Source of the DNA: Armatimonadota bacterium
GTDB taxonomy: Bacteria > Armatimonadota > Hebobacteria > GCA-020354555 > CP070648
Direction: 5' to 3'
DNA: 64,000 nt
Assembly: GCA_035527535.1 (NCBI GenBank)
Contig: DATLAK010000171.1
Location: 7,638 to 71,637, forward strand
Shown: positions 1,424 to 59,591 of the stretch, piece after piece
How the letters are laid out: every line of letters starts with the position of its first letter
How positions within the stretch are numbered: position 1 is the first letter of the stretch
Translations under genes and position numbers: made by a program
The notes under the pieces: model-generated
Seen by the model: the letters and a program-made list of their open reading frames with translations, nothing else
Told to the model about the DNA's origin: nothing
Database searches by the model: none

Positions 1424-1762
1424 ATGATCAAGGGCATCGCCCACGTGTGCTTCGTGGCGTGACCTGGAGTCTTCGCTGGCCTTATCGCGCGTGGAGACCT
1501 CGTCCGGGAGGAAACGCTGGTCCGGGCACTTCAAGCGGGATGGATCGCTGGCGCGGGCTTGGATGCCCCGACGCCAGATCCGCTGCCTGGAAGCAGCCGG
1601 CTATGGGATATGCCGAACGCGATCATTAGCCCACATGTGTCCGGCCTCACCCCCAGGCATGGAGAGCGTGCAACCGAGATATTTCTTCGCAACCTGCGCG
1701 CCTTCCTTATCGGCAATCTGGCCGCGATGACAAACGTCATAGGCCCCAAGCTGGGGTACTAG
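1424..1762 (+). pseudogene. C-terminal fragment of a D-isomer-specific 2-hydroxyacid dehydrogenase (SerA/PGDH-like) with an in-frame TGA 12 codons after an ATG
   Basis: Translation ...PGVFAGLIARGDLVREETLVRALQAGWIAGAGLDAPTPDPLPGSSRLWDMPNAIISPHVSGLTP... matches the NAD-binding/C-terminal region of 2-HADH family enzymes (xxRGxLVDExAL...G.iaGAgLDV...P.SPH.SG.T); only ~105 aa of a >300-aa enzyme are present; RBS GAGGAGG precedes ATG 1424, followed by MIKGIAHVCFVA then TGA. Confidence 0.55.
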
Positions 1763-1975
1763 CGATTCCCAAGTGCCTCGAAGTGGGAAGGCAACCTGAA
1801 GCACGCACTCGCGTAAGGAATTGAGATCTTTCGAACTCTGCCTGGCTTCAGGCCCCCAACATCTGTCTCTGCTCCTCCCACTCTGTCGGCAACCGATAGA
1901 GCTTGTCGAGCGATAGGCCGTCTGGCGCCGTGCCGTCGAGGATGGCTTCGACGATGTCCGGCGCCAGTAGTGTAA

Positions 1976-3279
1976 GTCGGAGCCGGCGGTCGCAAACGCC
2001 GGCCACACGCGCTGCGGGTGGTGCTGAGCTACTCCCGCCGGGCCTACAGCGAGGCGGTGTGGCGCCAGGACACGGAAAGCTTCATCCGCTGCCTGGAGAA
2101 TGCCTTCCACCATTTCGGCGGGGTGCCCCCGGACGCTGGTGATCGACAACCTGCGGGCAGCGGTATCCCGAGCCGACTGGTGCTCAGTTAACATAGTTGT
2201 GAATCAAGGACGCCGCAGCCCCCAGGACAGCCGAGGACGGCTGTCCTACCGCGAGAGCGGTGATACCGGTAGGCCAGGCGTCCCGCCTGGCCTCAGATGG
2301 CCATACCTGATCTTGTTGCAGGAATACGTTAACTGAGCACTGGTACGATCCGGAGCTGAATCCGAAGGTCGAGGAGTTTGCCCGCCACTACGCCACGGTG
2401 ATCCTGCCCACCAAGCCGCGTACTCCCCGCCACAAGGGCAAGGTGGAGAACAGCATCGGCTATCTGGCCGGCAACGCGCTCAAGGGCCATCTCTTTTCCA
2501 GCCTGGACGCCCACAACCAGCACCTGCGCCAGTGGGAGACGCAGGTGGCCGACCACCGTATCCACGGCACCACCCGCCGGCAGGTGCGGGCGCTGTTTGA
2601 TGAGCACGAGCGCCAGGCCCTGCTGGCGCTTCCCGAGCAACGATTCCCCTGCTTCCAGGAAGCGCGCCGCAAGGTGCACCGCGACGGTCACATCGAGGTG
2701 GAACGCTCCTACTACTCGGTGCCTCCGGAATACCTGGCCCGGGAAGTCTGGGTGCGCTGGGATAGCCGGGTGGTGCGCATCTATAACGACCGCTTCCCCC
2801 TTCGCTGAAGCTACGGGGGACAAGTCGAGCAGATCGCCATCCACTGCCGGGCACAGCGCGGCGCCTTCAGCACCCAGCAGGCGCATCTGGCTGCCGAGAA
2901 GATCAGCCGGGTCGAACGCGGCGCCGAGTACCTGCTTAGCTGCGCGGGCCTGATCGGCCCCTGGAGTGCCCGCTAGAGCAGGCAGATGATCGAGGCCCGC
3001 GGCGTTGCCGGCATCCGGGTGCTGCAGGGTTTCTTGACCCTGGCCCGCCAGATTCCGACCCCAGTCCTGGAAAGGGCCTGCCAAACCGCCGCCAAGCACC
3101 AGGTGTGGCGGTTGCGCCAACTGCGCCGGCTCTGCCAGCAACACCGCCAGCAGCCGGAGCTGGCGTTGCTGTCGGAGCATCCCCTGATCCGCCCGCTCGA
3201 TGCCTACGACGCCATCGCCCAGTTTCCTGGCGTCTCATTCCGACCGCCGGCGCCCGCACCGGAAATACCATATCCATGA
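1976..3279 (+). pseudogene. istA: IS21-family transposase IstA, 5'-truncated, one frameshift, two in-frame stop codons and a 159-bp insertion
   Basis: Recognisable IstA motifs: VLSYSRRAY...FHHFGGVP / TLVIDNLRAAV (DDE core), KGKVENSIGYL..., C-terminal GIRVLQGFLTLARQIPTPVLERACQTAAKH. HTH and first catalytic D region absent (stop TAA at 1973). Frame change in C5 run ~2126-2130; in-frame TGA at 2806 and TAG at 2974; interrupted at 2181-2339. Confidence 0.7.
2181..2339. mobile_element. MITE-like 159-bp non-autonomous element inserted in istA (12-bp perfect terminal inverted repeats, 4-5-bp target site duplication)
   Basis: Left end TGCTCAGTTAAC (2181-2192), right end GTTAACTGAGCA (2328-2339), flanked by direct CTGG/ACTGG (2176-2180 and 2339-2343); removing the element plus one duplicated target copy restores the IstA frame ...SRADW|YDPELNPK...; internal hairpins GGACAGCCG-AGGA-CGGCTGTCC and CCAGGCG-TCC-CGCCTGG. 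Confidence 0.6.
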
Positions 3280-3320
3280 CGGGCAAAGACTTGTCCGCCT
3301 CTGGCGGAAAGGAGCTGCGT

Positions 3321-4109
3321 ATGAACCCACAACTGCAAACGAGCTTGAAACGCCTTCGACTGTCCGGGCTGGCGAGCACGCTCCAGGTTCGCCTACAGGA
3401 AGCCAGGACCAACCAACTGGGCCATGAGGAGTTCCTCGAATTGCTGCTCCAGGACGAGCTGGCGCTGCGCGATCAGCGCCTGCTCCAACGGCGGCTGCAG
3501 GCCACCCACTTCCGGGAGCACAAGACGCTGGAGGACTTCCACTGGGACTTCAACCCCGCTATCCCCCGCCGCGAGGTAATGGAGTTGGCCACCTGCCGCT
3601 TCGTCGAGCAGGGACGGGGAATCCTGTTCATCGGCCCGCCGGGCACCGGCAAGAGCCATCTCGCCCAAGCTATCGGCTACCAGACCATCAAGCTCGGTTA
3701 CACCGTCCTGTATCGCTCGATCTTTGATCTCGTGCGCGATCTGGCTGCGGACCAGGCGCTCGCCGGCCAGGACAAGCTGCTGGAGCGCTACCTCAAGCCC
3801 GAACTGCTGATCATCGACGACATGGGACTAAGACGCATCCCGCCCCACTCGGGGGAGCATCTGTTCGAGATCATCATGCGCCGCCACGAGGTGCGATCCA
3901 CCATCATGACCTCCAACCGGCCCATCGAGGAATGGGGTAAGCTGCTTGGCGACGTCCCCGCCGCCGGGGCCATCCTCGACCGCTTCCTGCAGCACGCCCA
4001 GGTCATCACCATGGCCGGGCGCAGCTTCCGGCTCAAGGACAAGGCCCAAACTGAGGCCACAAAACCGTCAACCAAGCAGGAAAACAGCAAGCCCAAGAAG
4101 GATAACTAA
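3321..4109 (+). CDS. istB: IS21-family helper ATPase IstB (apparently intact)
   Basis: Walker A GPPGTGKSHLA, Walker B LLIIDDMG, IstB-typical HWDFNP... and SNRPIEEWG motifs; RBS GGAAAGGAG upstream of ATG 3321 (long ORF from 3105 has a less plausible N-extension). Confidence 0.8.
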   Translation: MNPQLQTSLKRLRLSGLASTLQVRLQEARTNQLGHEEFLELLLQDELALRDQRLLQRRLQATHFREHKTLEDFHWDFNPAIPRREVMELATCRFVEQGRGILFIGPPGTGKSHLAQAIGYQTIKLGYTVLYRSIFDLVRDLAADQALAGQDKLLERYLKPELLIIDDMGLRRIPPHSGEHLFEIIMRRHEVRSTIMTSNRPIEEWGKLLGDVPAAGAILDRFLQHAQVITMAGRSFRLKDKAQTEATKPSTKQENSKPKKDN

Positions 4110-4174
4110 CTGGCTGGTCTTGAATCGACCGTGAGTGGTTGGTTTTCAACTGACCGGCGACAGGTTCACGCGCG

Positions 4175-7288: not shown

Positions 7289-8148
7289 GGCCGAGACTCA
7301 GCATCCAAGCCCTCCTCCATCTCTTCCTCGCCCTGGGCGCGGTGAGCATGATCCTGCCCTTCTTGTGGATGCTCTCGACGTCGCTCAAACCGGAGTCGCA
7401 GATCTTCGCCTCCCCCACCTGGCTGCCCAAGGTTTGGCAATGGAGCAACTACTCCGCCGCGATGGCCGCCGCCCCCTTCGCCCGATACTTCGCCAACACC
7501 GTGCTCTACTCCACGCTCGTCACGACCTCGAACCTCCTCCTCTGCTCCCTCGCCGCCTACGCCTTCGCGCGCCTCAATTTTCGGGGAAAGAACCTGCTTT
7601 TCGTGCTCGTGCTCGCCACCATGATGATCCCCGGACAGGTGACCATGGTGCCGGTGTTCGTCATGCTCAAGCATTGGCCTCTCGCGGGCGGCAACCACCT
7701 CCTGGGCGCCGGCGGGCACGGCCTGCTGAACAGCTACACCGGCCTCGTGCTCCCGGGCGCGGTGGGCGCGTTCGGCATCTTCCTCCTGCGCCAGTTCTTC
7801 ATGACCCTCCCCCGCGAGCTCGAGGACGCCGCCCGCATAGACGGCTGCTCCGAGTTCGGCATCTACTGGCGCATCATCCTCCCCCTCTCCAAACCCGCCC
7901 TCGCGACGCTGGGCATCTTCACCTTCACCGCCGCCTGGAACGAGTTCCTCTGGCCCCTCCTCATCACCAGCAAGGACTCCATGAAAACCCTCCAGCTCGG
8001 CCTCCAGATCTTCCAGACCCAGTACACCACGCGCTGGGACCTCCTCATGGCCGGCACCGTCGTCGTCACCCTCCCCGTCCTCCTCCTCTTTCTCTTCGGC
8101 CAGAAGTACTTCACGCGGGGGATCGCGATGAGCGGGATGAAGGGGTAG
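7285..8148 (+). CDS. carbohydrate ABC transporter permease (MalG/UgpE-like)
   Basis: EAA motif EDAARIDGCSEFGIYWRIILPLSKP; ATG 7285 overlaps upstream TGA (ATGA); the longer ORF from 6532 is an out-of-frame overlap artefact. Confidence 0.8.
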   Translation: MRPRLSIQALLHLFLALGAVSMILPFLWMLSTSLKPESQIFASPTWLPKVWQWSNYSAAMAAAPFARYFANTVLYSTLVTTSNLLLCSLAAYAFARLNFRGKNLLFVLVLATMMIPGQVTMVPVFVMLKHWPLAGGNHLLGAGGHGLLNSYTGLVLPGAVGAFGIFLLRQFFMTLPRELEDAARIDGCSEFGIYWRIILPLSKPALATLGIFTFTAAWNEFLWPLLITSKDSMKTLQLGLQIFQTQYTTRWDLLMAGTVVVTLPVLLLFLFGQKYFTRGIAMSGMKG

Positions 8149-59354: not shown

Positions 59355-59591
59355 AGCGGCGGATTCGGGCGGAAGGATGCATCTCGGAATTCACAGCCGG
59401 GGGCGGCTGTGCCACATGATAATGCGTGGCGGCCGAGCCCACTTCGCTGAAGCTACGAGGGCCAAGGGCGGCTGTGTCAGCGGGAGGACAGAAAGAGGAG
59501 AGCGAGGAGCGGGCCTGTAAGCCGGAGTCCGCAGGGCAGGCCGGGCACTTCTCGCCCCCCAAAGCACCGACGCTCCAGGCCAAGGCCAGAC

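Follow-up and report, generated by a model that had tools for sequence, protein, structure and literature searches.

A probable IS630-type MITE inside a decaying IS21 copy of an Armatimonadota bacterium

The 64-kb window (the whole stretch of DNA analyzed, to which all coordinates refer unless another contig is named) contains a bacterial miniature inverted-repeat element (MITE), a genuine mobile insertion inside the istA gene of an IS21-family remnant. The sequence-only reading had placed a short element with inverted repeats here, a mobile element nested in a mobile element, and the repeats, the flanks, and the restoration of the IstA frame were all reproduced. That reading recognized no described family. 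The MITE does represent a family so far undescribed, within a well-known and ordinary class; it is not an orphan type, since it fits the MITEs derived from IS630/Tc1-mariner elements. Judged from its ends, target, and duplication, it is very probably of this type. Neither the repeat strings nor the element itself was found in the literature searched.

The IS21 remnant and its interruption

The features of the host element are as follows.

1980-4163, plus strand: 5'-truncated IS21-family remnant, with 84 to 91% BLASTN identity to an intact IS21 copy from a JGI metagenome, L033 (91% over 1980-2181, 84% over 2339-4163)
~1980-3279, plus strand: istA pseudogene (Pfam rve and Mu-transpos_C_2)
2126-2130, plus strand: +1 frameshift in istA, an extra C in a C-run; ...FGGVP and RTLVIDNL are contiguous in 10 homologues; independent of the MITE
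2797-2826, plus strand: 30-nt hairpin insert with a TGA stop in istA, unrelated to the MITE; it separates NDRF from EQIA, which directly adjoin each other in 10 homologues and in L033
2974-2976, plus strand: nonsense mutation in istA, TGG to TAG, where homologues have Trp
3321-4109, plus strand: intact istB (Pfam IstB_IS21; NCBIfam IS21_help_AAA, NF038214, 246.7 bits, cutoff 200)

With an istA remnant followed by the gene for an IstB AAA+ helper, the host element can be assigned by its predicted gene content to the IS21 family; the closest intact IstA homologue (P0293) scores 279 bits against NF033546 (cutoff 160). About 149 N-terminal codons of istA are gone together with the left end of the IS21, and apart from the MITE the gene thus carries four further lesions (truncation, frameshift, 30-nt insert, and stop). 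The IS21 copy was already decaying when the MITE entered. As the remnant is dead and carries four other lesions anyway, one more disruption is the only functional effect that the insertion has today; it does account for the split istA pseudogene in the annotation and for contig breaks within the repeat.

Neither the ten homologues nor L033 have the 30-nt insert of istA (CCCCTTCGCTGAAGCTACGGGGGACAAGTC). An exact second copy of its 16-nt core, CTTCGCTGAAGCTACG, is present at 59442-59457 (region 59439-59466), and the insert may represent a tiny hairpin element that is repeated. The region 1270-2015, which precedes the IS21 remnant on its upstream side, resembles gene debris: a 52-amino-acid minus-strand open reading frame (ORF) in the 1848-2006 region, without a Pfam match, is presumably the C-terminal tail of a recombinase, and the fragments at ~1440-1760 we take to be dehydrogenase-like.

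Deletion of 2181-2343 (163 bp) fuses ...LRAAVSRADW in frame with YDPELNPK..., as had been noted before for an exact removal of the element, and the rejoined IstA aligns gap-free over the junction to IstA of IS5376 (PDB 8q4d/8b4h, residues 146-349). All ten intact IstA homologues (72-90% identity) read ...ADWYDPELNPK..., uninterrupted and with no gap at the junction. On the DNA level L033 carries the empty site, GACTGGTAC; its two BLASTN segments share an ACTGGT overlap, and the window has 163 extra base pairs.

The whole element is also present at this locus in two ENA assemblies (L001 and L002) and one JGI assembly (L030), and contigs of the locus from two independent Logan assemblies (L031 and L032) both break inside the MITE, position 1 of each corresponding to window position 2274, the start of the third internal hairpin (see below). 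Such a shared break point is as expected for a repeat that is multicopy in those samples. A look-up with IstB returned the same locus in other assemblies alone, and no MITE-free strain at this locus.

It might be argued that there was no insertion, and that the segment is a native or lineage-specific part of istA or a mis-assembly of unrelated reads. One of its frames is indeed open for 51 codons; otherwise this is an a priori possibility alone. The segment is absent from the ten IstA homologues (up to 90% identity), from IS5376 IstA, and from the L033 DNA, which bears out the earlier expectation that it is not native to istA, and it occurs in nine contexts other than IS21. The same junctions are found in ENA, JGI, and Logan assemblies, and an assembly artifact is excluded because the insertion is present in these independent assemblies of the locus. 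The probability of this explanation is negligible. The insertion entered a C-TG-G target; its TGG encodes the conserved Trp of ...ADWYDPE..., and for this reason the target could not have been TA.

Ten copies and a 2-bp target-site duplication

The element and its boundaries are as follows.

2180-2340, no strand assigned: MITE, 161 bp, noncoding, in all likelihood IS630-type; the unit is found at 10 distinct loci without indels, its ends always being G...C
2180-2192, plus strand: left terminal inverted repeat, GTGCTCAGTTAAC; an imperfect repeat runs on to ~2208
2328-2340, minus strand: right terminal inverted repeat, GTTAACTGAGCAC on the plus strand
2178-2179, no strand assigned: left copy of the 2-bp target-site duplication, TG (TA at the nine other loci)
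2341-2342, no strand assigned: right copy of the 2-bp target-site duplication, TG

The element had been described as 159 bp long, with perfect 12-bp inverted repeats and a duplicated CTGG or ACTGG. The perfect repeats stand: TGCTCAGTTAAC at 2181-2192 is paired with its exact reverse complement at 2328-2339, and these are the only two matches with at most one mismatch in the 64 kb (0.09 expected by chance). A repeat on both flanks is likewise present, CTGG at 2177-2180 and 2340-2343, the full repeated string being ACTGGT (2176-2181 and 2339-2344), which overlaps the element ends. Nine further copies and related insertion sequences (ISs), however, correct the extent to 161 bp with 13-bp repeats, and the true duplication is 2 bp, not 4 to 5 bp.

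The nine further copies were obtained by scanning JGI metagenome contigs for the repeat pair at a spacing of 120 to 150 bp, which gave nine matches. They come from three metagenomes, lie in nine different flanking contexts on contigs of 59-66% GC, and are identical to the window copy at 148 to 152 of 159 positions (93-96%), with the same length and zero indels. The occurrence of further copies, which had been named as a test, is thereby established at unrelated loci, with inverted repeats and flanking duplication reproduced, and multiple copies within a single genome are likely. Four of the copies (L005, L006, L007, and L010) are identical to each other, a sequence signature that points to recent transposition. 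The inverted repeats, perfect over 13 bp and imperfect over ~28 bp, are identical in the 10 copies, an identity that is partly a matter of ascertainment, the search pattern having demanded 12 of the 13 bases.

Other data sets yielded no copies. The exact repeat pair had no match in the GTDB species genomes, so the host metagenome-assembled genome (MAG) or close relatives with perfect ends are not among the species representatives. The repeat pair was likewise not found in viral contigs, where two one-end matches (L015 and L016) are due to chance, lying in coding sequence of phages of 39% GC, and a consensus MITE gave no BLASTN match to PLSDB plasmids. A copy census via MITE-encoded peptides was dropped, since the TAG within the CTAG target terminates the open frames. 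In practical terms the absence of an ORF noted before holds, as the only two frames that stay open for 51 codons are each terminated at both element ends. No Rfam match at E ≤ 1 was obtained for 1700-3400, and a promoter and terminator scan revealed no promoter- or terminator-like site in the MITE.

Across the 10 loci the target is C-TA-G in eight cases, G-TA-G in one, and C-TG-G in the window; the duplicated dinucleotide is TA at 9/10 loci and TG at the window locus. Just inside the flanks, all 10 copies have a G at the left end and a C at the right end, the CTGG site included. The simplest reading is an element of 161 bp, G TGCTCAG...CTGAGCA C, with a 2-bp duplication, and the apparent 4-bp repeat then arises because the duplication is extended by the element's own terminal G and C.

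Alternatively, the ends would be TGCTCAG...CTGAGCA, the duplication a true 4-bp one (CTAG; here CTGG), and the MITE a derivative of an IS5-, IS701-, or IS1182-type element. Members of these types duplicate 4 bp at YTAR-like targets, and the perfect CTAG/CTAG flanks of eight copies and the CTGG/CTGG of the window, taken alone, fit equally well. The perfect 4-bp YTAR-like duplication of such elements is, however, missing at L005, which is flanked by G-TA...TA-G (GTAG on the left, CTAG on the right) and has no 4-bp repeat, while the element there shows zero substitutions relative to three other copies. Moreover, a related full-length IS (L023 to L026) is flanked by C-TA...TA-A, that is, CTA-G.../...C-TAA, and so demonstrates a 2-bp duplication for the clade independently. 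Because of L005 (G-TA/TA-G) and L023 (C-TA/TA-A), a 4-bp duplication is excluded. The ends, furthermore, match ISs whose transposases pass a curated IS630 model rather than IS5-type models, and no IS5-like partner was seen; taken as a whole, this alternative is clearly unlikely. We therefore retain the 161-bp element with a 2-bp duplication. It is a clean worked example of how CTAG flanks can lead to an element being misread as one that duplicates 4 bp.

Relation to IS630-family insertion sequences and to known MITEs

A one-end scan of genomes for TA, the 13-bp repeat, and 5 partly degenerate bases gave three matches, against an estimated ~17 chance matches, and the one in a Dehalococcoidia MAG (L014) is convincing solely since it falls exactly on an IS terminus. 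Here the IS end reads TA plus GTGCTCAGTTAACAT, with 15 bases and the TA in full agreement with the MITE, and is followed inward by an AT-rich leader and the ORF start MAGVAVMVRDKYAVRL. The IS with this exact end match lies in another phylum (Chloroflexota). The two remaining matches fall in coding sequence and are attributed to chance, L012 lying inside a 480-amino-acid gene and L013 in a Ligilactobacillus MAG.

In a sister strain (L017), a frameshifted gene with a Pfam DDE_3 match occupies the same place, and its reconstruction contains HTH_23/29/32 and DDE_3. This transposase has 7,964 homologues at E < 1e-30, with the NCBI name IS630 family transposase; on the curated NCBIfam model NF033545, "IS630 family transposase" (cutoff 100), P0123 reaches 217 bits and P0145 225 bits. 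Four intact relatives (L018, L020, L021, and L022) are 1220 to 1228 bp long and are flanked by C-TA...TA-G; the transposases of these relatives likewise contain HTH_23/29/32 and DDE_3. Their ends are GTACTCAGTCAAC / GTTGACTGACTAC in L021 and L022 and GTATTCAGTCAAA in L018 and L020. The MITE repeat agrees with the ends of L021/L022 at 11/13 positions and with the L014 IS end at 15/15 plus the flanking TA, and the TGA of the MITE right repeat is in the register of the transposase stop codon in the right ends of L017/L021. Past the first 13 to 15 bases the similarity between the MITE and the sampled IS ends is not significant (z < 2), and the link to IS630 therefore rests on terminal repeat, duplication, and target.

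A search for a full-length autonomous element with the same inverted repeats had been proposed. An IS630 clade with similar ends does exist, although no full-length element bearing both MITE ends was recovered. A tblastn search detected no IS630-family transposase in the 64-kb window or the nine MITE-bearing contigs, and none of the best 120 homologues ends in ...QEYVN or ...TLTEH, the C termini expected of a transposase encoded up to the MITE right end.

Several further observations concern these ISs. In L018 (3116-3131) and L020 (1246-1261), the transposase stop codon TAG lies outside the element and consists of the duplicated TA and the flanking G of CTAG. The L017 transposase gene carries, at 7402-7425, a small GC hairpin insert (CCCCGCATCAAGTACGGGG...) just past ...GSWLN, and several database transposases (P0142, P0146, and P0211) have different inserts at the same spot (WLNPVLSLSKG...), which suggests a hotspot for tiny hairpin insertions. 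An unrelated 145-bp MITE-like element with repeats GTATTACAACGACGG (L017, 8470-8614) sits exactly at the TA beside the IS630 left end and is missing at the same site in the sister strain (L014, 108-127), providing a filled/empty pair in Dehalococcoidia. In L027/L028 (380-500), a short element bounded by inverted repeats TAACTGTTCAG...CTGAACAGTTA takes the place of the left end of another IS630 copy and could belong to yet another MITE family.

In IS630/ISY100 elements, short terminal repeats are bound by an N-terminal double helix-turn-helix, and the DDE domain carries out cut-and-paste transposition (PMC2170065). By analogy, we infer mobilization of the MITE in trans, the acting enzyme, and its presence in the host. 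The MITE would hold just the 13-bp (~28-bp imperfect) repeats for an IS630-family DDE transposase, placed around a GC-rich core of three hairpins. A transposase made elsewhere in the genome would bind both ends via its N-terminal helix-turn-helix domains, the element would be cut out by cut-and-paste, and its 3' ends would be joined to the target with a 2-bp stagger, usually at TA in the center of CTAG; repair would then duplicate the two staggered bases. The window copy entered an off-consensus CTGG, at the Trp codon of istA, with duplication of TG.

The TA duplication is shared with IS630/ISY100, and so is the target, IS630 preferring TA within CTAG (Tenzen & Ohtsubo 1991, as cited in PMC2170065); in addition, the full-length relatives of the MITE pass the curated IS630 model. 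In contrast, the window MITE encodes nothing, and its nearest full-length relatives form a separate 1.22-kb clade with ends GTRYTCAGTYAAC, mostly from Dehalococcoidia MAGs. A further difference concerns the target: ISY100 inserts "almost exclusively" at TA (PMC2170065), the rare non-TA exceptions in vitro being AA/TT, whereas the window MITE duplicated TG. This duplication is atypical for the superfamily, and the site is one base off CTAG; the window copy is a natural exception to TA targeting.

The closest known analogue in behavior is RUP of Streptococcus pneumoniae, a MITE attributed to IS630-Spn1 on the grounds of similar repeats and of its TA targets. RUP has repeatedly been encountered within the transposase genes of ISs from other families, and these genes are inactivated by it (PMC2229807). 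Both elements are short and noncoding, have terminal repeats like those of IS630-family ISs, insert at TA, and have highly similar copies that suggest recent mobility; the position of the window MITE inside an IS21 istA parallels that of RUP in foreign transposase genes and is a further case of a TA-targeting MITE disrupting another IS. The two differ in size and setting, RUP having 107 bp and 9-bp repeats in a low-GC Firmicute, while the window MITE has 161 bp, 13-bp repeats, and a GC-rich three-hairpin core in an Armatimonadota MAG of 65-70% GC. No sequence relationship between them was seen, and an IS is the target of just 1 of the 10 copies of the MITE. Correia/NEMIS elements of Neisseria and the eukaryotic Stowaway elements are also TA-flanked, 100 to 160 bp long, and bounded by terminal repeats, their transcripts or single strands fold into long stem-loops, and they lie both in and between genes (PMC2229807). 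Their sequences and hosts, however, are unrelated to the window MITE, and Correia elements possess IHF sites and promoter elements, unlike the MITE, in which the scan described above gave no promoter- or terminator-like site.

The MITE opens neither a new mechanism nor a new question. It adds a MITE family and, by association, an IS630 clade to the poorly studied, uncultured lineages of Armatimonadota and Dehalococcoidia, its notable points being the corrected 2-bp duplication, the TG exception, and hairpins free of substitutions.

The hairpin core

Two internal GC hairpins had been noticed in the element. Hairpins are indeed present, and their number is three.

2225-2246, no strand assigned: internal hairpin 1, GGACAGCCG-AGGA-CGGCTGTCC; identical in 10/10 copies
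2246-2272, no strand assigned: internal hairpin 2, CTACCG...CGGTAG; loop variable, stem shortened by one pair in the window copy
2272-2292, no strand assigned: internal hairpin 3, GGCCAGGCG-TCC-CGCCTGGCC; identical in 10/10 copies

As single-stranded DNA the MITE has a predicted folding energy of -43.1 kcal/mol (z = -6.75 relative to shuffled sequences), and the predicted fold is a junction of three hairpins closed by the terminal repeats. Among the 135 positions left free by the search pattern 21 are variable, and none of these falls in hairpins 1 and 3, which span 43 nt (hypergeometric P = 1.4e-4). Constraint on transposition-competent lineages may explain this lack of substitutions, as may self-correction of perfect palindromes or substitutions that are not independent of each other. 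A bolder proposal would make hairpins 1 and 3 a selected functional module, acting in synapsis or excision or as a host RNA or DNA signal, and would at the same time have the transposase of the clade tolerate natural non-TA targets such as CTGG; we regard this combination as rather doubtful.

The same core could be taken to indicate a REP/BIME-like or other hairpin repeat that spread by another route, such as RAYT- or IS200-IS605-type single-strand transposition or recombination, the inverted repeats being incidental. It consists mostly of GC-rich perfect hairpins with strong predicted folding, and the stem of hairpin 1 occurs once elsewhere in the window (59393-59410). This one partial match, however, is all that the 114 kb examined contain in the way of independently moving hairpins, whereas the ten copies agree in length and in their 13-bp inverted ends, each is flanked by a duplicated dinucleotide from a palindromic target, and their ends match a DDE-transposon family. 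A hairpin repeat of this kind is thus very improbable, and we favor the MITE with IS630-type ends.

The partial match is itself a hairpin, ACAGCCG-GGGG-CGGCTGT, with the same 7-bp stem as hairpin 1 of the MITE (ACAGCCG-AGGA-CGGCTGT), and it is the only stem match outside the MITE copies in the 114 kb. The tiny element with the 16-nt core has its second copy 30 nt downstream of this hairpin.
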